Below are positions 735 through 10,236 of a stretch of 64,000 bases of DNA, in pieces; within the stretch, counting starts at the first letter, position 1, and each line of letters starts with the position of its first letter. The position numbers and the translations under genes are program-made. The stretch is from Desulfobacterales bacterium (GTDB lineage: Bacteria > Desulfobacterota > Desulfobacteria > Desulfobacterales > UBA5852). The notes beneath the pieces were generated by a model. That model made no database searches, had not been told where the DNA came from, and saw only the letters and a program-made list of their open reading frames with translations. The stretch covers positions 2,080,001 through 2,144,000 of the forward strand of contig CAXXVS010000002.1 in assembly GCA_963674755.2 (NCBI GenBank). The letters are read 5' to 3'.

Positions 735-1312
735 ATTTGATGTTCATCCAGGGTAGCGGACATGGCGGCCAGTACAAAAATCAACGCTAAAAAAGCGAAT
801 AGCGCCAGTCCGGGAATAATGGTCGCCATCTTCCCCAGTTTGGCCACCGATACCAGGATCCCCAGCATGAAAATTTCCATCATACCCCAAGGCTTGAGGA
901 GCAGATACACTCTGAAAACACGGGTCAGGTGACGGGGCACCTGATTCATTTTTAGTGGCACCAGGATATAGAGCAAGCTCAATAGATGGATCGCCGGCAC
1001 GATTACCACGGTGATCAGCACCAGGGTGGCGATGATGACCATACCCTGCTGATAGAGCTGGTAAATCCCGGTGGCCAGAATTGTCTCACGGAGCTGGGCA
1101 CCGATACGAAAGCCGAGAAACGGATTGAGGTTGGCCACCAGGTAAAGTGTGATACCGGTTATGGTCAAGGCCAGGGTACGGTTAATGCTGTCGCGCTTCG
1201 GGCGGTTCAGGGGAGCGCCGCAACGGGCGCAACGGGCAGAGCCCCCGAGCGGTATCTCACCCAGATGGTGGACCAGGTCGCAATCGTGGCAGGCGATGGG
1301 ATGGACGGTCAT
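692..1312 (-). CDS. pqiA: Paraquat-inducible protein A domain protein (first PqiA subunit)
   Basis: CHDCD...CARCG, PWGMMEIFMLGILVS motif. Confidence 0.9.
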   Translation of the reverse strand: MTVHPIACHDCDLVHHLGEIPLGGSARCARCGAPLNRPKRDSINRTLALTITGITLYLVANLNPFLGFRIGAQLRETILATGIYQLYQQGMVIIATLVLITVVIVPAIHLLSLLYILVPLKMNQVPRHLTRVFRVYLLLKPWGMMEIFMLGILVSVAKLGKMATIIPGLALFAFLALIFVLAAMSATLDEHQIWQTFEHQSSEAHH

Positions 1313-2036
1313 CTCCGGTATCCTTATCCAATCAGGTGAACTCTATGACCATACCAGAACTTTCGGAAAATACAACTCATTCGCGTCCGAAGCGCCGACC
1401 GGTATTTTCATCCCTCTTAAATCCTCTGGCAGGCGCCGCCCTCATATCGCACTGATTGTTTTCCTGATTTTGGCTTAAGTGGGACAAGTAGAACTAAACC
1501 GCGACAATGGGGTGTGTCAAGGGCACCGGCACCTCCGCCGGTTGCCCGAAAACATGCGACGAAGGGTGCGTTTGGTTTGTGGGAAGCCGATCCTGGATTA
1601 CAAGCTTGCATCTGGCAGGGTGTTGATTGGAAAAACACCACTGCCTTGATTGGGTACCTGCCCGCTGTTCAGCAGGTGATTTCCTCTGCTCTGTGAGCCT
1701 GAATGGCAGGGTCGGCAGCTTTGGGGCTGCCACCCTTATCACCTCGCGACTGGATGTAATAAACCCTCCACGGATCTCCCCGGCTCGGAATCCTTGGGGG
1801 TGTCCCCTCTTCCGTTTCATCCCCCTTGCTTTCGGAGTTGGCTGGTGGTATCAGACGCTGCTTTATGCATCGATATCCCTTAATGTTTTCAGAAAGATAG
1901 AATGATGTGTTATGCAATATGGTGTTGGTGTCGAGGTATGTTTATAGCCGCCCGGCTGGGCTTGCTGAAGGGGGCAGGGGAGAGAAGATAGATTATTCGT
2001 ATTCTCCCGCCCTCACCACAGAGGGGTGGGAGGGGG

Positions 2037-2453
2037 ATGGACATTAATATGAAGGAAAGTGCATCTGATATGGGAACCATCAAAACGACATACGAGCTTG
2101 ATAAGGGTCTGACTGTCATCACAGCAACGGGTAGGATGACTGCACAGGACTTCGATGAATGGAGGCAGAATTACTATTCTGACAAAGTTACAGCGAACAT
2201 CCTTTGGAACATCGTTGATGCCGACCTATCAGAAATTGAGTCCGAAGATGTTGCTACACATGCCCAACGTATTAGTGCCGATGCGAATGTACGTAAAGGC
2301 GGCAGATCTGCCATCGTTGTTGGTGGAAACACACTGGCATTAGGTTTAAGCAGGATGCGTGGAATTTATGGTGAGCTTGCGGATTCGCCCATTGCGGTAG
2401 AAATATTCACCAACATGGACGAAGCCAGAGAATGGCTTGGTGTAAAGGAATGA
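2037..2453 (+). CDS. STAS/SEC14 (SpoIIAA-like) small protein 1; true start may be ATG 2069
   Basis: N-terminal strand plus G, ILWNIVDAD, RSAIVV, C-terminal F..MDEAREWL signature. Confidence 0.7.
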   Translation: MDINMKESASDMGTIKTTYELDKGLTVITATGRMTAQDFDEWRQNYYSDKVTANILWNIVDADLSEIESEDVATHAQRISADANVRKGGRSAIVVGGNTLALGLSRMRGIYGELADSPIAVEIFTNMDEAREWLGVKE

Positions 2454-2824
2454 TGGTATTGGATATCAAGATTGACAACGAAAAGAAGATCATCCAGCGA
2501 ACCGTAACCGGTGATCTCTATACCGGGCGCTCACTCAAACTGGTCCGTGAACTTGCGATGTCTGTCAATACTCACAAGGGTTACAATGTCCTGATGGATA
2601 TGCGAGAGACAGAAACCAAGCCCGACATGCTCGACCTGATGCAGATCGCATCGGCTTGCACGAAGCTTCGGTCTAATTTCGATAGCAAGATTGCCTTTCT
2701 TATCCCAGATACCGAAGAGCGCATCCGATTCGCCCAGCTTTTCAAAGCCTGTATGGGAGCCCAAGGCTTTGAGTTCCGGCAGTTTTTCGATCGGGAAGCA
2801 GCTCTGGAATGGCTCGGAGTTTGA
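2450..2824 (+). CDS. STAS/SEC14 (SpoIIAA-like) small protein 2
   Basis: ATGA overlap with the upstream gene; NVLMDMRE, KIAFLIP, FFDREAALEWL. Confidence 0.72.
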   Translation: MMVLDIKIDNEKKIIQRTVTGDLYTGRSLKLVRELAMSVNTHKGYNVLMDMRETETKPDMLDLMQIASACTKLRSNFDSKIAFLIPDTEERIRFAQLFKACMGAQGFEFRQFFDREAALEWLGV

Positions 2825-2969
2825 GCCATCGTTCCCAGCCCGATACCGGCAATTACGGTTGACACGCTCCCTAAAAACATAGTAGCGATTTCAGTCAATT
2901 ACATTGGAAACGGATCGAATAAACAAGTCCGCCCGTCGCTCCGGCAATCATTAGTACTTGGAGACACTC

Positions 2970-3338
2970 ATGCCTGACAGGATTAAGCTCTATCATATAA
3001 GGGACTTCATCAGAATGACAGAATCCGGTGAGCTTGATCGTGACAGGTCGATTAGACTTGTTCGTGAACTTGCGACCTCAGCTGACTTCCATAAAGATCA
3101 CAATGTCATGCTGGACTTGAGAGAGACTCATGGACAAGCAAGTATGAGCGATCTAATTGAGATCTCAACTGAGTTTGCATCCTACCACAAAGTCTTCAGA
3201 AACAAGATTGCCGTGCTCATTCCAAACACCGAAGAACGGCTTCAACTCGCCAACCGATTTAAAACGTGCATGGATATGCAGGGCTTCCTATTCGAACAGT
3301 TTACCGACTTTGAAGAGGCAATAGAGTGGCTCTCATAG
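2970..3338 (+). CDS. STAS/SEC14 (SpoIIAA-like) small protein 3, paralog of protein 2
   Basis: GGAG SD; NVMLDLRE, KIAVLIPNTEER, FTDFEEAIEWL; shares RS..LVRELA.S and IP.TEER with protein 2. Confidence 0.72.
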   Translation: MPDRIKLYHIRDFIRMTESGELDRDRSIRLVRELATSADFHKDHNVMLDLRETHGQASMSDLIEISTEFASYHKVFRNKIAVLIPNTEERLQLANRFKTCMDMQGFLFEQFTDFEEAIEWLS

Positions 3339-3515
3339 GTTCCTTGCCATAGCAAGAGCACAGTCAGGACCGCATTCATCAATCCAGCTAAGGATCATAC
3401 CTTTTATTGTCTTGTACTCGACGGTCCCCGGCACCAAGGTGCCGGAGGGATCAATCAGTGTCAGCGCTTTGGTGATCGTTTCGACTTCGGTTTCTCGTTC
3501 CAGTTTCTTAGCCAA
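3333..3515 (-). CDS. IDPxGxLxPGT-family small protein, subtype B copy 1 (60 aa, C-terminally shortened)
   Basis: TTG start with GAGGGG SD; 35/47 aa identical to 6671-6877; ends MARNL instead of MARKGAKHLDTWLK. Confidence 0.65.
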   Translation of the reverse strand: MAKKLERETEVETITKALTLIDPSGTLVPGTVEYKTIKGMILSWIDECGPDCALAMARNL

Positions 3516-3718
3516 GAGTGCCCCTCGATATTGAGAAGGTGCCGACTGTCGTGAGACATTCGCAGCACCTCGTCCGGTTCCATTTCCGCCATCCAAGATA
3601 GGATCATTTCCGTAACCCAATTGTGCTCGTGCGTACCTGGCATCAACACGCCCTTCGGGTCGATGATTGCCAGAGCGTTCGAGAGCGTCTGGTATCTGAC
3701 ATTGGTGGGTTTTGCCAT
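3461..3718 (-). CDS. IDPxGxLxPGT-family small protein, subtype C (85 aa; start could be 3733)
   Basis: TLSNALAIIDPKGVLMPGTHEHNWVTEMILSWM...EVLRM aligns with the other four paralogs; overlaps the start of B1. Confidence 0.65.
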   Translation of the reverse strand: MAKPTNVRYQTLSNALAIIDPKGVLMPGTHEHNWVTEMILSWMAEMEPDEVLRMSHDSRHLLNIEGHSWLRNWNEKPKSKRSPKR

Positions 3719-3913
3719 TAGCGACTTTCCCATTGTTGGCAACCACGGTCTGAAATTGGAATTCGGAATTGGCAATCTATCTTGAGCCATAACGATGGCA
3801 GGATCGCTAATCAGGTTGGGTGAAGATGACCCTTAGCACAATGATAGGTTTAAGTTCTACTCAAAAAATGATCTTATCCATAGCTGGTTAAATGGACTGG
3901 CAAGGCAAACGCA

Positions 3914-3949
3914 GGTGGGATTGATACCGGGGGCGGAACGCCCCCATGG
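3914..3949. repeat. Conserved GC hairpin element, copy 1
   Basis: GGTGGGATTGATACCGGGGGCG-GAA-CGCCCCCATGG, 34/36 identical to 6597-6632. Confidence 0.9.
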
Positions 3950-3966
3950 AAGCATGATTCGGCGAT

Positions 3967-4167
3967 CTATCTCACAGCACCTTCCACCCACACCTTCAGG
4001 TGCTTGGCGCTGTACCGAGCCATCTCAAGCACCTCGTCCCGGCTGTGCCGCCTCAACCAGATATAGATCATCTCGCTGATCCGATCGTACTGGCGAGTGC
4101 CCGGTATGAGCATCCCTTCGGGATCGATTAGCTTCAGGGCTTCTTTTATGGTGCCATCGGGGTCCAT
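3967..4167 (-). CDS. IDPxGxLxPGT-family small protein, subtype A copy 1 (66 aa)
   Basis: ATG at 4167; 44/60 aa identical to 7100-7294; a 1-nt indel near the end gives WVEGAVR where A2 has WWKVL. Confidence 0.8.
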   Translation of the reverse strand: MDPDGTIKEALKLIDPEGMLIPGTRQYDRISEMIYIWLRRHSRDEVLEMARYSAKHLKVWVEGAVR

Positions 4168-4172
4168 GCCAC

Positions 4173-4224
4173 ATTCTAAAACAAAAAGGGGAGGTGCCAC
4201 CAAAGCAGCAGTCGGATCCGCTAA
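4173..4224 (-). promoter_or_regulatory. Conserved upstream element / putative leaderless sigma70 promoter, copy 1
   Basis: GTGGCA-16-TAGAAT-5 nt-ATG, no SD; CGGATCCG palindrome at 4213-4220; nearly identical to 7300-7352. Confidence 0.65.
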
Positions 4225-4340
4225 CAATAGTTGCCTAAAACAATGGAGCGGCGCCATAGAGGAGTGTAATACTCTGGTGGGTATTTACCTTCCGGGACTT
4301 CGTTGAAGCTTCTTAGAATTGATTTTACTTTGGTGATCAT
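4221..4340 (-). pseudogene. 39 aa ORF, probably the 5' remnant of a gene cut at the module boundary
   Basis: AGGGGT SD plus ATG (MITKVKSILRSFNEVPEGKYPPEYYTPLW...); its TAG lies in the first bases of the duplicated element. Confidence 0.35.
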
Positions 4341-4413
4341 GGCTTACCCCTGTTTTCTTTTTAGGGGTTATCAACACCATAAGGATCACTGCATTCCGAG
4401 CCGCACAATTATT

Positions 4414-4713
4414 TCAAGATTTCTTCCGCTTCTCCCGCCGCCATTCCCATGGCGGCGTAGGATCCTTATTAGCCCATAACCCGATACCAGCCTTCCTGGC
4501 TACCTCCTCAGCATCGGCATAATCCTGCCGCTTCGAGTACCGCTTATAATGCCACGCAAACCCAGCCTTCAGGATCTCCAAATTCAGCTCCTTGCCGCTT
4601 TCAAGATAAACCCTATCCACGGTCCGACCGTACCGGTCGATATCCACCTCCCGGTAATGGATGGTCTTGCCAAAGCACTGATCTGAAACAAACTGCTTAG
4701 CTTTCTTCCCGTA
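4414..4713 (-). pseudogene. Thermonuclease (SNase-like), C-terminal fragment
   Basis: YGKKAKQF...DIDRYGRTV...LNLEILKAGFAWHY...ARKAGIGLW...PPWEWR; the N-terminal DGDT/RL.GID.PE region and start codon are missing. Confidence 0.85.
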
Positions 4714-4798
4714 ACCCGCCGTAAGGGATCTTGAGCCGGATGGCTACGTCAAGGGCGGCTTGTTCGGCGCCGGAGGATATGATCTTGGTGATGGTCAT
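4697..4798 (-). pseudogene. N-terminal fragment of a putative molybdenum-carrier (SLOG superfamily) protein
   Basis: MTITKIISSGAEQAALDVAIRLKIPYGG resembles the family start KIISGGQTGAD.AALD.AI..GIPHGGW, with the GQT residues lost. Confidence 0.6.
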
Positions 4799-4802
4799 AC
4801 GA

Positions 4803-5465
4803 CTAATTGTCAGGCATATCATGCATTGTAAGGGATTCCACTACTGACTCGAATGCTGGGCGGTTACTTTCAAATTTTTCACTCACAGAAAAAAGTATCA
4901 CTGCCGTTTGACAAAAATTCGTTTTGTGGCATGGGCAAATAAACCAGTCTAAACCAGCTGTTACGTCATTTAAGGAATGCTCCATATCGACCTCAATCTC
5001 GTACAGCGCTTCAGGTTTATACGATCTGGCATTAGCAATATAATTGCGGTGCGTTGTTGAAAGACTTTCAACATTGACCTGGCTCTCAAATCGCGAGACC
5101 TTGGTGTCTGTTTCGATCTTTTCTTTCATCATTGGCAGGATCTCACGAATTTTTCTTTCCGGCGTATCAAGCAAGTCCTGAAAGCTGTGTCTTCTTTTAT
5201 CGTTTGCAATGGTAATTATTCCTCCCGAGCTTTTATTGATCATTACCAACGTCACCATTTTTTTGAAGGACTGAGGAATCGTTTTCTCAATGTCCTTTGG
5301 GAATTTTTCGTAAACATCCCAACCTTGGGGGATGTCAACGCTGTACTGATATTTGAAATTGGTAGCCTTGTCGGGGAGAATAATCGGGGGAGGAAAAGTT
5401 GCACAACCAACGAGTCCAACTACCGCAGCCATAATAAGCAGATTACTCCAGGTCAGGCGTTGCAT
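4803..5465 (-). CDS. Hypothetical lipoprotein
   Basis: GGAGG SD before ATG 5465; signal peptide with LVGC lipobox. Confidence 0.7.
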   Translation of the reverse strand: MQRLTWSNLLIMAAVVGLVGCATFPPPIILPDKATNFKYQYSVDIPQGWDVYEKFPKDIEKTIPQSFKKMVTLVMINKSSGGIITIANDKRRHSFQDLLDTPERKIREILPMMKEKIETDTKVSRFESQVNVESLSTTHRNYIANARSYKPEALYEIEVDMEHSLNDVTAGLDWFICPCHKTNFCQTAVILFSVSEKFESNRPAFESVVESLTMHDMPDN

Positions 5466-5506
5466 ACTGTATATCCTCCATTTATTTGGTATTCGGATAG
5501 GCGTCA

Positions 5507-5971
5507 CTATCCCGCGACGCTTAGTTCATATCCAAAGGTTACTTTGTCAAATCCTTCATCCGAATGATACTCGATGCGAAAAGGCATTCGCTTCTGGAGA
5601 TCGCCGAATACCGTATGGGGGCGAAAACTTACATTATCAACTATCCGATCCACTCTGCCTACAAGCATAAAGAACTTTGAAGGTCCATCCATAAGCCTGT
5701 AAAAGCTTATGTTCCCGTTGGAGGCATCAACAAAGCCCTCGATAACATAGTCTCCTTCAGCCACTCCCTTTTTTATGATAAAATCGAAAACCATGTGGGG
5801 GGTTGTGAGAACACACTGTTTGCCTTCACCAAAGGCTGGATAGTAGCCAGAATGATAATCACACCATCCCTCTGAAGGGTATTCTATCTCTTGCCCAACA
5901 TACTTCTTACCGCAAGAAACAAGAACAAGAGCACAAAGAACGAGAATCACTGCTACCGAAATTCGCCTCAT
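5507..5971 (-). CDS. Hypothetical lipoprotein
   Basis: GAGGGG SD; MRR, a hydrophobic stretch and an LVSC lipobox. Confidence 0.72.
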   Translation of the reverse strand: MRRISVAVILVLCALVLVSCGKKYVGQEIEYPSEGWCDYHSGYYPAFGEGKQCVLTTPHMVFDFIIKKGVAEGDYVIEGFVDASNGNISFYRLMDGPSKFFMLVGRVDRIVDNVSFRPHTVFGDLQKRMPFRIEYHSDEGFDKVTFGYELSVAG

Positions 5972-6001
5972 GTCATTCCCCTCTCATATTGAGTTCCAAG
6001 T

Positions 6002-6547
6002 TTATCTCGTCAGGTACTCCGTATCCCCTTTCGCCCAGCCCAGATATAGTACCAGACCATCAAAGGGCTGGGCGGGGTATATCATGTTCATCTCAGTCTC
6101 TATTCCAAACAGTGCTGCAAATTTGCTGTACTGGTCGAACCACATGTTCTGCGGACTGAACGAATGCACCAGCATGAGTGCTATCCCCGCTTGAAACTGC
6201 CGAGCTAAAAGCTTAGCGGACACAGTCCGGTGTAGCAGCTGGTACGGGATTTCCATGACGGCATCCACAGGCAGGTTAAGCTCCGAACACAGGAACTCCA
6301 ACCGCTTCACCTTTCCGGCAGAGGGGTTCTGGTACCATTCCGATACAGGCTTATCGAACGGTTCGTCCACCTTGCCTTCCACGGCAATGGTGACAAGCTG
6401 ATCGGCTGACTTAGCCAGGACGAATATGTCATTCTGAGAGGCGGCTCTGCCGCCGGGGAGGTCCACCTTGTGCTCGGGGATAATCAGGAGGGGGGCGATG
6501 TGCTTGACCTGATTAGCAAACGAATAGTAGATCCTGAACTGGACCAC
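6002..6547 (-). pseudogene. DUF6946-like PD-(D/E)XK-fold protein, probably 5'-truncated
   Basis: PEHKV.LPGG..SQNDIF, AVEGKVDEPF, YQLLHRT, MLVHSFS motifs recalled for this family; no SD, and the expected N-terminal segment appears absent. Confidence 0.55.
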
Positions 6548-6550
6548 ATC

Positions 6551-6581
6551 GGCAGAGCCTCTTTGAGGCTCTGCCTTTTTT
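6551..6581 (+). terminator. Intrinsic terminator-like hairpin
   Basis: Perfect 11-bp stem GGCAGAGCCTC-TTT-GAGGCTCTGCC followed by T6. Confidence 0.7.
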
Positions 6582-6596
6582 GTGCCTTGAGTATTG

Positions 6597-6632
6597 GGTG
6601 GGATTAATACCGGGGGCGGAACGCCCCCGTGG
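6597..6632. repeat. Conserved GC hairpin element, copy 2
   Basis: GGTGGGATTAATACCGGGGGCG-GAA-CGCCCCCGTGG. Confidence 0.9.
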
Positions 6633-6670
6633 GGGTGGTACGCCGGGTTGACGGCTGCCTCAACGACACT

Positions 6671-6877
6671 TCACTTCAACCATGTGTCCAAGTGCTTTGC
6701 GCCCTTCCTTGCCATATCAAGAGCGTAATCAGGACAGCCTTCATCAATCCAGCCAAGGATCATATCTTTTATCGTATTGTATTCGACGGTCCCCGGCACC
6801 AAGATTCCGGAAGGATCAATCAGTGCCATTGCTTTAGATACGGTTTCGTCATCTTGATCGGTTCGTTCTGGTTGCAT
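6671..6877 (-). CDS. IDPxGxLxPGT-family small protein, subtype B copy 2 (68 aa, intact)
   Basis: GGAGG SD; ETVSKAMALIDPSGILVPGTVEYNTIKDMILGWIDE...MARKGAKHLDTWLK. Confidence 0.8.
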   Translation of the reverse strand: MQPERTDQDDETVSKAMALIDPSGILVPGTVEYNTIKDMILGWIDEGCPDYALDMARKGAKHLDTWLK

Positions 6878-7039
6878 TGCAATCCCTCCCTGGTGGCATA
6901 TTGAGCAGCCGTGTTTCTCAGGAGCAAGATCAGAAATTGGAACGCTGATGTGAATGGCTTTGTCAAAAAGGTTATAGCGGCACTAAAAAATGTCAAACGC
7001 AGCTGCCGGGGGAACTGGTATTGGGGAACCAGAAACGGG

Positions 7040-7075
7040 AGGAGTCGATACCGGGGGCGCAGAGCGCCCCCGGCT
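7040..7075. repeat. Conserved GC hairpin element, copy 3 (variant)
   Basis: GGAGTCGATA-CCGGGGGCGC-AGA-GCGCCCCCGG; same ATACC leader, longer stem. Confidence 0.8.
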
Positions 7076-7099
7076 ATGGGCGGGATTTCAGAGCCTATC

Positions 7100-7294
7100 T
7101 TACAGCACCTTCCACCAAACCTTCAGGTACTTAGCGCTGTATCGAGCCATCTCAAGGGTCTTTTCAGCACCGTGCTGCCGTAACCAGATTTCGAGCATTT
7201 CCCAGATCCTGCCGTATTGACGTGTACCGGGAATGAGCATCCCCTCGGGGTCGATGCGCTTGATAGCTTCGGATATTGTTTCATTCGGGTCCAT
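7100..7294 (-). CDS. IDPxGxLxPGT-family small protein, subtype A copy 2 (64 aa)
   Basis: MDPNETISEAIKRIDPEGMLIPGTRQY...LEMARYSAKYLKVWWKVL; differences from A1 are synonymous-biased. Confidence 0.8.
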   Translation of the reverse strand: MDPNETISEAIKRIDPEGMLIPGTRQYGRIWEMLEIWLRQHGAEKTLEMARYSAKYLKVWWKVL

Positions 7295-7299
7295 GACAT

Positions 7300-7352
7300 A
7301 TCATAAAACAAAAAAGGGGAGGTGCCACCGAATCAGCAGTCGGATCCGCTAA
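7300..7352 (-). promoter_or_regulatory. Conserved upstream element / putative leaderless sigma70 promoter, copy 2
   Basis: GTGGCA-17-TATGAT-5 nt-ATG, no SD; CGGATCCG at 7341-7348. Confidence 0.65.
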
Positions 7353-7560
7353 TCCGAATCGAGACTAAGAAGCGGGCTTGACGTACCATCATTGGTACGG
7401 GTGCCATTCTGGGACTAAAAACCCTCTGGGGCTATATCACTGTAAGGGTTGCCCAATAGGGCGAGAACAGAGCGAGAATGAGGGAATGCCTATGGGCATC
7501 CTCCTTTTTTATGGGGAAAGTGGTGAGAACAGAATGAGAATAAGTCTTCCCAGAAGCAAC

Positions 7561-7594
7561 TCAGGGGGTCAGGCTTTGTTGCCTAACCCCCTGA
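7561..7594 (-). terminator. Inverted repeat just downstream of tRNA-Leu (terminator/att-flank type)
   Basis: TCAGGGGGTCAGGC-TTTGTT-GCCTAACCCCCTGA. Confidence 0.55.
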
Positions 7595-7601
7595 TTTTAT
7601 T

Positions 7602-7689
7602 TGGTGCCGGAGGGGAGAATCGAACTCCCACGAGCGCAAGGCTCACCAGATTTTGAGTCTGGCGCGTCTACCAATTTCACCACTCCGGC
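7602..7689 (-). tRNA. tRNA-Leu(CAA)
   Basis: GCCGGAG acceptor stem, CCAGA-CTCAAAA-TCTGG anticodon arm, long variable arm, GTTCGATTC, encoded CCA. Confidence 0.97.
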
Positions 7690-7820
7690 CGAAATGAGTG
7701 CTATTCCATAGACAACCTGCCGGTGATTGTCAACCCAAACTCCACCCGTCGGGGCAAAACGTCGTTGCTGGTGTAGGTTGAGCAGCAGGGCGGTGGAAAC
7801 CGTCCTGAGGACGACGCCGC

Positions 7821-8471
7821 TTACGGTCCCGCAACAGGGCCATCGATAATAGTGCGAATGGCGTCCACCTTCACGGCCCCTTCGCGCAGAATCCGCACCA
7901 CATCGGGTTGCACATCGACCACGGTGGACCCGATGCCCGGCAGCAGCGGGCCGGCATCCAGAACCAGATCCGCGGCAGCCAGAATGGCCGGCTGGAGGTC
8001 TTCGATACGGCGACATCCCGGATGACCCGATAGATTGGCGCTGCTGGCAGTGATCGGTCTTCCCAGGGCGCGAACGAGGTGGCGGCTCACAGGATGCGCG
8101 ACAAGACGGATGCCGATACGGCCCGTGCCACCCATGAGGGCTTCCGGTAAAAGCGGTCCGGCCGGCAAGACGATCGTCAGCTTGCCGGGCCAGAAGGCAT
8201 GCATCAGGGCCGTCGCCCGGGCATCGATCCCCCGGGCATAGATCCCTGCCTCCGCGGGCGATGCCACCAGAATCAACAGGGGCTGCTGCCTCGGACGCTG
8301 TTTGGCCGTAAAGACACGCTCGACGGCCCGGGGGTTGAGAGCATCCACGCCCAGGCCGTAAAGATGCCGCGTGGGGAGAACCACCATACCGCCCCGGTCA
8401 AGACGATGAATCGCCTCTCGAATCAGGACGGGATCCGGACCAAGCGGATCGATGAAACGGATTTTACTCAA
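7821..8471 (-). CDS. tsaC: L-threonylcarbamoyladenylate synthase (Sua5/YrdC)
   Basis: PT..YGLG, KQRP, FWPGKLT, SSANLSG, STVVD. Confidence 0.92.
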   Translation of the reverse strand: MSKIRFIDPLGPDPVLIREAIHRLDRGGMVVLPTRHLYGLGVDALNPRAVERVFTAKQRPRQQPLLILVASPAEAGIYARGIDARATALMHAFWPGKLTIVLPAGPLLPEALMGGTGRIGIRLVAHPVSRHLVRALGRPITASSANLSGHPGCRRIEDLQPAILAAADLVLDAGPLLPGIGSTVVDVQPDVVRILREGAVKVDAIRTIIDGPVAGP

Positions 8472-10236
8472 CCCGCTGAAGCGCTTGAGCCTTGCGTTCG
8501 ACCTGACGGGCCATCTCCGCCCGGTGGACCGTCAATCGCGCTGCCAGGTCGGGATCGGAAAGGGCCAGGATCTGAACCGCCAGCAGGCCGGCATTTTTGG
8601 CGCCCGGCTTGCCCACCGCCATGGTGGCCACCGGAATCCCCGGCGGCATCTGGACCGTCGACAGCAGCGCATCCAACCCCTGCAGGCAGGAGGAATCGAT
8701 AGGCACGCCGATGACGGGCAGGGTCGACTGGGCCGCCATGGCCCCGGCCAGATGGGCGGCGTGCCCCGCACCCGCGATGATAACCTTGATCCCTTTGTCC
8801 GGTGCGCTGCGGGCCCATGCTGCGGCCCGCTCGGGCGTCCGGTGGGCCGAGGCGACGGTGATCTCATAGGGTACGTGGAATTTCTTGAGCATGGCCACGG
8901 CCCCGTTCATCACGGCCAGATCGGAATCGCTGCCCATCACGATGCCCACGGCCGGCTGCTGCTGAAAACGCCGTAGCGCCTTCTGTCCGATATCCGTGCG
9001 GTAGTGAACCTTTCGCCATGTGATCTTCTCCACCGCCTGGTAGGCCCTGTGGATGGCTTTCTCGACGGTGTCTCCCAAAGCGGTAACGCCCAGAACGCGC
9101 CCGCCATTGGCCACGACCTTCTTGTCCTTGGTTCCGGTGCCTGCATGGAAAACCATCACATCCCTCATGCGCCGGACGGCATCAAGGCCGCTGATGGGAA
9201 AGCCCTTGCCATATTTGCCTGGGTACCCGCCGGAGGCCATGACCACGCAAACCGTGGCCCGGGAATCGATCTCCATCCGGCACTGGTCCAGCCGTCCCTC
9301 GATGATGGCCAGCATAAGGGGCACGATATCGCTCTTGACGCGCATCAGCAGCGGCTGTGCTTCAGGATCCCCCAGGCGGGCGTTGAACTCCAGGACCCCG
9401 ATCTTGTCGCCGTCGATCATCAAACCCGCATACAGGAAACCTTTATAGGGCCGACCCTCCGCCGCCATGCCCTTGACGGTGGGAATCATGACTTCCTTCA
9501 TGATGCGTTCGTGCAGATAGCGGTCCACGATGGGCGCCGGCGAGTAGGCCCCCATGCCCCCGGTATTGGGCCCTTTATCCCCGTCGAAAACCGCCTTGTG
9601 ATCCTGCGAAGAGGGCAGCGGCAAAACGGTTTTGCCGTCCGTAAAGGCAATGAAGGACGCTTCCTCGCCCACCAGGCATTCTTCGACCACCGCTTTGTTA
9701 CCGGCCACCCCGAACTCTTTTTTCACCATGACCCGATCCAAGGCCTCCAGGGCCTCCTTTTCGGTCTGGCAGACAATCACCCCTTTGCCGGCCGCCAGGC
9801 CGTCGGCTTTGACGACGACCGGCGCTCCCATTTTCTTGATATAGGAGCGCGCCGCCTGAACACGTGTAAAGGTCTCTCCCTTGGCGGTGGGAACCCCGTA
9901 TTTCTCCATAATGTATTTGGAAAAGGATTTGCTGGCTTCCAGTTCCGCGGCTTTCTGCGAGGCCCCAAAAATTTTAAGGCCCTCGGCCTCGAAGATGTCG
10001 ACCACCCCCTTGGCCAGCGGCGCCTCGGGTCCGCAAATGGTCAGGTCGATGTCCTCGCTTTGGGCAAAGGCCAGCAGAGCCGGTACATCTTCGGCATCGA
10101 TGGGCACGCAGGTTGCTATGGTTGCGATACCGGCATTGCCGGGGGCACAGAATACTTTCTTGACCAGGGGACTTTGAGCAACTTTCCACACATAAGCATG
10201 CTCCCTGCCGCCGCTGCCGATCACCAGCACTTTCAT
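8464..10236 (-). CDS. purD-purE: Fused phosphoribosylamine-glycine ligase / N5-CAIR mutase
   Basis: GSGGREHA, KADGLAAGKGV, NTGGMGAYSP, then in-frame MGSDSDL, SAHRTP, VQMPPGIPVAT. Confidence 0.96.
   Translation of the reverse strand: MKVLVIGSGGREHAYVWKVAQSPLVKKVFCAPGNAGIATIATCVPIDAEDVPALLAFAQSEDIDLTICGPEAPLAKGVVDIFEAEGLKIFGASQKAAELEASKSFSKYIMEKYGVPTAKGETFTRVQAARSYIKKMGAPVVVKADGLAAGKGVIVCQTEKEALEALDRVMVKKEFGVAGNKAVVEECLVGEEASFIAFTDGKTVLPLPSSQDHKAVFDGDKGPNTGGMGAYSPAPIVDRYLHERIMKEVMIPTVKGMAAEGRPYKGFLYAGLMIDGDKIGVLEFNARLGDPEAQPLLMRVKSDIVPLMLAIIEGRLDQCRMEIDSRATVCVVMASGGYPGKYGKGFPISGLDAVRRMRDVMVFHAGTGTKDKKVVANGGRVLGVTALGDTVEKAIHRAYQAVEKITWRKVHYRTDIGQKALRRFQQQPAVGIVMGSDSDLAVMNGAVAMLKKFHVPYEITVASAHRTPERAAAWARSAPDKGIKVIIAGAGHAAHLAGAMAAQSTLPVIGVPIDSSCLQGLDALLSTVQMPPGIPVATMAVGKPGAKNAGLLAVQILALSDPDLAARLTVHRAEMARQVERKAQALQRVE

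Follow-up and report, generated by a model that had tools for sequence, protein, structure and literature searches.

The attC sites of integrons are 57-141 nucleotides (nt) long, carry R and L boxes and go with an IntI integrase, while cis-mobilizable elements (CIMEs) and other decayed tRNA islands consist of integrase-less cargo left at the 3′ end of a tRNA gene. Promoter early stem-loops (PeSLs) of T4-type phages unite strong sigma70-like promoters with polyG/polyC stem-loops, at which transcription terminates and through which shuffling occurs (PMC2839356, PMC4122927). The rAID-1 (recombinase-associated acquired interbacterial defence) clusters of Bacteroidales are described as a tyrosine recombinase with small protective genes downstream of it in the same orientation, with repeated motifs between these genes and a lower GC content (10.1101/471110). 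Here we analyse a 64,000-nt stretch (the window) of a Desulfobacterales bacterium (GenBank assembly GCA_963674755.2, contig CAXXVS010000002.1, positions 2,080,001 to 2,144,000), in which five minus-strand open reading frames (ORFs) for small related proteins lie in two clusters beside a tRNA-Leu gene. Our results show that these ORFs belong to a protein family that is real and undescribed, and whose setting is of a known kind.

The five ORFs are open at the positions given in Table 1, and re-reading them gave 60, 85, 66, 68 and 64 amino acids (aa) in coordinate order. The order A-C-B in copy 1 and A-B in copy 2 was correct as originally predicted, and the reported identities of A1 with A2 (44/60) and of B1 with B2 (35/47) were reproduced exactly, as were the eight synonymous and zero non-synonymous changes between A1 and A2 in a 14-codon core. 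A profile of the five found only those five in the genome holding the window (G000, 6.7 Mb; G-numbers denote genomes and L-numbers loci compared), at 95-121 bits, with the next ORF at 12 bits. A sixth, broken remnant of the family lies 190 kb from the window (G000:C2:1890159-1890296). The alignment of the five ORFs found 138 homologs among 227 candidates, reduced to 64 representatives at 50% identity; nearly all are of 50-125 aa (63/64 within 50-162 aa), and where they carry a name it is 'hypothetical protein'. Purifying selection on real proteins, which had been proposed from the A1/A2 core, was confirmed by pairwise comparison of a 46-codon core in 45 distinct genes (five ORFs without the full core were skipped). 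The median ratio of nonsynonymous to synonymous substitution rates (dN/dS) was 0.13-0.29 by subtype, not near 1, namely 0.21 for A (21/21 pairs), 0.29 for the mixed B group (156/171), 0.13 for C (108/120) and 0.28 for E (3/3).

The statement that these proteins belong to no named family also stands. Pfam, PHROG, NCBIfam and PADLOC gave no match above cut-off for the five ORFs, 124 members or five distant members; for the 124 members, the best E-values against family libraries were 0.0055 and 0.017, each involving at most 3 members. A PDB sequence search with two alignments reached best E-values of 0.26 and 0.37 and allowed no assignment. Phage and plasmid collections held no family match, and viral contigs gave two 18-residue matches only. 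None of 8000 scored candidates of 217-2000 aa was a longer protein with the domain, which is weak evidence. A literature search over titles and abstract openings, with the genus name guessed, returned no paper on the family, none joining DUF6538 with an integrase and none on phrog_4756.

AlphaFold2 predicted three helices for B2 (residues 7-20, 31-46 and 49-67; predicted local distance difference test score, pLDDT, 87) and the same three helices for C (pLDDT 80). Foldseek found nothing at E 1e-3 in PDB or among the predicted structures of BFVD, and the best VIA Z-scores (5.7 and 5.3) correspond to common three-helix arrangements at background level. Columns conserved in at least 90% of 124 sequences (A16, D21, P22, L26, P28, G29 and W43) belong to the hydrophobic core or are helix-cap or turn residues. 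In the same sequences no column exceeded 64% Lys/Arg, no His, Cys, Lys or Arg was invariant and no catalytic set was evident; basic residues of helix 3 are moderately conserved. Median net charge by subtype ranges from -2 to +1, the B types being acidic (median -2). C and the C-coupled B′ subtype are homologous to each other (hhalign, 98.8%). A short helix-DPxG stretch scored E 0.26-1.1 against the EF-hand proteins myosin light chain and centrin, which is not significant, and an LVPG motif is reminiscent of alpha/beta small acid-soluble spore proteins (SASP); no EF-hand or SASP match was present in Pfam for the 124 members at E 0.1. We conclude that this is an unnamed family of 60-85 aa three-helix proteins, real and conserved.

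The spacers of these genes are also repeated. An alignment of 15 hand-picked spacers revealed a shared unit of ~110 nt with a G-run/C-run hairpin, GGTATC, a pyrimidine-rich tract and a promoter. Upstream of stand-alone B, E and F genes, TTGACA recurs at a constant distance with a spacer of 16 nt; single promoter scores were mostly not significant against shuffles, and the fixed TTGACA position alone is informative. In the related loci from which both patterns were drawn, a 9-bp palindrome-like box, RGTRBYRCY, lies before 23/42 lead genes and 0/11 second-in-pair genes (0.013 expected per search window), and the hairpin pattern follows 22/45 last-in-unit ORFs, 0/14 overlapped ORFs and 53/4000 random windows. 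The box pattern is unmatched in the window's C copy. Partly independent support comes from the upstream element of A1 and A2, which is unrelated to the B spacer and has the same box over its -35 hexamer. In both genes the -10 hexamer lies 5 nt before ATG and a Shine-Dalgarno sequence is lacking; the start is probably leaderless, and we infer that the leaderless A promoter was gained after integrase loss. Two other interpretations were discarded: an SOS regulon, as no box precedes lexA or recA, and a REP-like (repetitive extragenic palindromic) nature of the hairpin, of which only three copies were found in the genome. The hairpin was also found after a non-family gene for a membrane peptide. 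This 51-aa membrane-peptide gene, itself without a family match, often precedes the hairpin-promoter cassette.

The likeness to PeSLs lies in a repeated intergenic stem-loop with a sigma70-like promoter before small ORFs of unknown function, in variable regions reshuffled by recombination (PMC2839356, PMC4122927). It is a likeness of sequence, and terminator, promoter activity and mini-circles are putative here. In contrast to PeSLs, which are described from hyperplastic regions of T4-type phages, the present cassettes lie in a bacterial chromosomal tRNA island with no phage match, mostly serve paralogs of one family, carry the additional 9-bp box and place the hairpin ~45 nt upstream of the -35. 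Compared with integron attC sites, the hairpin stems are of 8-11 bp and, by eye, have no conserved outer pairing.

The proposed module of an integrative element was supported by relatives, whose intact elements have A immediately after a DUF6538 tyrosine integrase. In L060 the start codon of A overlaps the last codons of the integrase, and L047 reads tRNA-Met, DUF6538 integrase, D (a distant member) and A, in that order. The L047 element, in G004, is intact: it has both the integrase, of DUF6538/phrog_1 type, and a direct repeat of the tRNA 3′ end, 21 bp long and 28 kb away. Its repeats enclose STAS-like, thermonuclease, resolvase, SRAP, TIR and type I restriction-modification genes, cargo kinds partly shared with the window. 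Its far end carries the gene of a 594-aa protein of unknown function (phrog_4756), and a piece of this gene also occurs in L037. An N-terminal integrase fragment is retained ahead of an A remnant in L041. ARAGORN found a tRNA in 7/25 fetched loci, many of them short, and in 4/16 loci of a second genus, one of which also has an integrase and two tandem modules. At this locus, L127 (G774:C34:17500-25636), tRNA-Met and an integrase are accompanied by two tandem 3.1-kb modules, each with a distant member; a third module lies on contig C10. The link with the integrase is not obligate: G011 and G016 carry related integrases with no family member in the vicinity, and lone C genes occur in unrelated settings (G006, G007, G011 and G015). 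Family genes are often lone and away from integrases.

A 5′ tyrosine recombinase followed by co-oriented genes, as in L047 and L060 and not in the window itself, resembles rAID-1 clusters (10.1101/471110). In contrast to those clusters, the integrase here is of DUF6538 type with tRNA attachment-site (att) repeats rather than an XerD-like rAID recombinase, and the genes form one paralog family, without immunity homology, in another phylum.

At tRNA-Leu the window holds a decayed island without an integrase, as G000 has no match to the DUF6538-type integrase of the relatives' elements and no second att copy of the tRNA-Leu end was found near the island. In carrying integrase-less cargo at a tRNA 3′ end it resembles a CIME; it differs in that no second att copy was found nearby, and its mobilisability is only putative. 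The variable region sits between tRNA-Leu and pqiA genes. Its flanks (1-1579 and 7564-9000) align with G012 (L037) at 86-90%, and the interior aligns in patches only. Three SpoIIAA-like genes of the island are among six matches to a local profile in G000. In relatives, the counterpart of the terminator at 6551-6581 ends an operon that is missing from the window. This operon, of one or two 44-aa acidic peptides (with two conserved Cys) and a 30-aa hydrophobic peptide, ends at the terminator facing the array. The 44-aa peptide is present in 13/17 genomes of the taxonomic family, in up to eight copies, and has no Pfam or NCBIfam match; the operon is a separate undescribed multicopy cassette.

The idea of a simple duplicated module was not supported. 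A1 and A2 differ at a dS of ~1.3, each groups with A genes of different genomes, and the two-cluster layout is also found at tRNA-Leu in G012. Between the two clusters only the 49-nt A promoter piece is closely alike (94%). Based on the dS and the same layout in G012, the two clusters of the window are old, A1 and A2 being old paralogs rather than a recent duplication. Judged by its sequence, B1 is a truncated, C-coupled subtype: it begins at a TTG inside C, overlaps C by 55 nt and is ~11 codons short, running into the 3′ end of a STAS-like gene. In A1, one extra base near 3988 alters the last residues; this base is missing from a related strain's contig, and the likely source run confirms it (0 differences over 3589-4654). 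Of the 43 differences in that strain's 3.6-kb contig, 31 are packed into a 412-nt segment around A1, as cassette exchange would predict. In run X3 coverage is low at 6743-7224 and the contig leaves the window sequence at 6507, which is no proof that the strain lacks copy 2. Copies are frequently broken or C/B chimeras (such copies occur in L037, L038, L041, L047, L048, L055 and L063), a pattern that suggests birth-and-death evolution through recombination.

With few exceptions, the family occurs in two genera of a single order. In its own genus 10/12 other genomes match, against 0/4 genomes from other genera of the same taxonomic family, with 0-11 matches each. Distant members occur in 22/27 genomes of a second genus, from another taxonomic family (1-6 matches each), and in 0/34 genomes of six sister genera of the latter. 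Order-wide, 8/301 genomes matched the first broad profile and 13/401 the profile of distant members; in phylum samples the figures were 1/401 and 2/401, the extra hit of the second profile being marginal. In a tree of 63 rows and 64 columns, supported clades that span genomes comprise C, E and four of the A genes, and B-like genes are unresolved. A1 and A2 pair in this tree with A genes of different loci.

With regard to molecular role, we favour, at a probability of roughly 40%, the reading that these proteins bind a host protein of signalling or transcription stoichiometrically, modulate it without enzymatic activity and are kept by the host. This is favoured because hosts retain lone copies on which purifying selection acts, and because STAS-like genes appear repeatedly as co-cargo (in the window, L037, L042, L044 and L055). 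Islands that integrate at tRNA genes would spread the family, whose arrays gain, lose and fuse copies. The hairpin may end the upstream transcript, the box may place all lead genes under one regulator, and turnover may be driven by recombination between paralogs and cassettes. Each subtype would have its own specificity or strength, useful enough to the host to outlast decay of the element. Several points weigh against this reading. The protein-binding role is argued from the lack of other features, no partner or target having been identified, and the neighbours of lone copies are not conserved. The box and hairpin patterns were drawn from the very loci, themselves related, in which they were counted, so that these counts are circular and lack independence; the box is absent from 19/42 lead genes and lies before only 1/13 genes examined in the second genus and G282. 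A crude rule, under which some intact but divergent genes are misclassified too, makes 17 of 68 matches fragments; many broken copies fit a weak or transient benefit. Expression is indicated by one unstranded 311-nt contig from one salt-marsh RNA run, a weak hint that may be DNA; it spans 6637-6947, between the predicted B2 start and the B2 hairpin, and most of the stretch is uncovered.

It is possible, although unlikely, that the proteins are DNA-binding regulators which, as homodimers or C-B′ heterodimers, recognise the 9-bp box of their own promoters and thereby control the island. The box overlaps A, B, C, E and F promoters, including the unrelated A context in the window, and is absent from the SOS genes named above, with one high-scoring site only in the genome; the overlap of C and B′ in 11 scored pairs and the basic residues of helix 3 would also suit such a role. 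However, no helix-turn-helix or other DNA-binding family was matched, the B types are net acidic, no Arg or Lys is strongly conserved, and the box is rare in the second genus. We can also speculate, doubtfully, on a self-regulating integrase-borne array, in which a new fold would have diversified by shuffling PeSL-like cassettes and subtypes (C-B′, A, E and F) would pair combinatorially on a shared operator or on variants of a host or competitor target, as a paralog-only counterpart of rAID and integron arrays.

An array of antitoxins or orphan immunity genes would share the rAID-1 outline of integrase, co-oriented small genes, repeated spacers and lower GC. Small acidic helical proteins suit binding of this kind, and the operon of the hydrophobic 30-aa peptide converges on the array in about ten loci. 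We nevertheless think this reading rather improbable, since the genes are paralogs of one family instead of diverse immunity genes, no cognate toxin stands beside any copy examined, the peptide operon is also present where the family is not, including genera that lack it, and PADLOC and Pfam gave no match. Still less probable is an anti-defence function, with strong expression on entry of the element and later shut-off via the shared box. Strong early expression followed by shut-off is the logic of anti-CRISPR (Acr) loci with their Aca regulators, and small, near-neutral to acidic, element-borne proteins arrayed with strong promoters and an operator-like box are reminiscent of it. However, G000 has no Cas1 and no CRISPR array (apart from a poly-C artefact), the phage, plasmid and viral searches gave no more than the two short matches above, and purifying selection and retention as lone chromosomal genes fit it poorly.

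Enzymes, membrane toxins and directionality factors are disfavoured. The toxin-antitoxin pair of the original prediction is unlikely in its type I form, as there is no hydrophobic membrane helix and the helices are amphipathic and soluble. For a type II pair, the overlapping C-B′ bicistron is present (11 second-in-pair genes among 53 scored); its partners are homologous to each other, and lone C genes exist. The suggested recombination directionality factor, or an integrase inhibitor, is highly improbable: in L060 and L047 the end of the integrase gene is coupled to A, or to D followed by A, and short integrase-tail remnants were read by eye before A in L037, L041, L043, L052 and L057, yet G000 keeps five copies without a match to this integrase, the related integrases of G011 and G016 lack a family gene, no winged-helix match was obtained and most copies have their own promoters.

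Several further observations were made. A distant family member at L073:141-694 (G282:C374) lies 240 nt downstream of an S-adenosylmethionine (SAM) riboswitch and its terminator, a single case. A link with SAM was rejected, as none of 16 second-genus loci has a riboswitch and the gene occurs in 1/20 genomes of the G282 taxonomic family. Two c-di-GMP-I riboswitches were found at L001:8053-8127 and 2362-2436 (G000:C2 near 1890 kb), one of them ~50 nt from the broken A remnant, on the opposite strand and amid transposase genes. An Rfam scan of window positions 1300-8000 matched the tRNA alone. In the window, purD and purE are fused into one 590-aa ORF (8464-10236), as in G009. A run of nearly pure C over several hundred bases (G000:C3:1790584-1791288) is probably an assembly artefact.

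Table 1. Features of the tRNA-Leu island and of related loci. Plain coordinates refer to the window.
Feature	Position	Strand	Details
tRNA-Leu(CAA)	7602..7689	-	integration hot spot; ARAGORN; terminator at 7561-7594 from terminator scan
Variable island region	1580..7563	.	no integrase left; GC 43-54% vs 54-68% in flanks
A2 promoter element	7300..7352	-	box GGTGGCACC (7329-7321) over -35 GTGGCA; -10 TATGAT ends 5 nt before ATG
A2	7100..7294	-	subtype A2, 64 aa, intact
Hairpin after A2	7050..7074	-	G-run/C-run, terminator-like, z -3.7
B2 promoter	6969..6996	-	TTGACA, 16 nt, TAACCT; box at 6984-6976 within spacer
B2	6671..6877	-	stand-alone subtype, 68 aa, strong Shine-Dalgarno, three helices (predicted)
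Hairpin after B2	6612..6630	-	z only -0.5 in this copy
Intrinsic terminator	6551..6581	+	faces array
Partial DUF6946 ORF	6002-6547	-	cargo between clusters (cargo block 4414..6547)
Two lipoprotein-like ORFs	5507-5971, 4803-5507	-	cargo between clusters; label inferred from visible signal/Cys motif
Thermonuclease, C-terminal half	4414-4647	-	cargo between clusters
A1 promoter element	4173..4224	-	94% identical to that of A2 over 49 nt; box 4201-4193; -10 TAGAAT 5 nt before ATG
A1	3967..4167	-	subtype A1, 66 aa, late +1 frameshift near 3988
Hairpin after A1	3929..3945	-
C leader	3719..3880	-	conserved, ~140 nt, with degenerate promoter/box; blastn to L037-L040, L056-L059, L061-L063
C1	3461..3718	-	subtype C1, 85 aa, three helices (predicted) and basic tail
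B1	3333..3515	-	C-coupled B′ subtype, TTG start, 3′ end truncated, hairpin lost
Three SpoIIAA-like (STAS/SEC14-type) genes	2037..3338	+	co-cargo of islands; Pfam PF11964 below cut-off, E 4.5e-4 to 0.013
Intact 28-kb element at tRNA-Met	G004:C6:41171-69164		DUF6538 integrase
51-aa membrane-peptide gene	L039:8891-9043; G000:C2:1777600-1777755		also L041, L044, L046, L057, L058, L062
44-aa/30-aa peptide operon	L039:7583-8023; G000:C3:224858-225225	+ (L039)	also L037, L041, L047, L051, L061-L063

In conclusion, without a target this is one lineage-restricted family of island genes among many. The present analysis nevertheless defines a conserved, unnamed small-protein family with a confident predicted fold in most genomes of two genera of sediment bacteria. 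Terminator-promoter cassettes of the T4-phage type apparently drive the turnover of its paralogs in a bacterial island. Direct tests can start from the shared box, the overlap of C with B′ and the intact 28-kb element.

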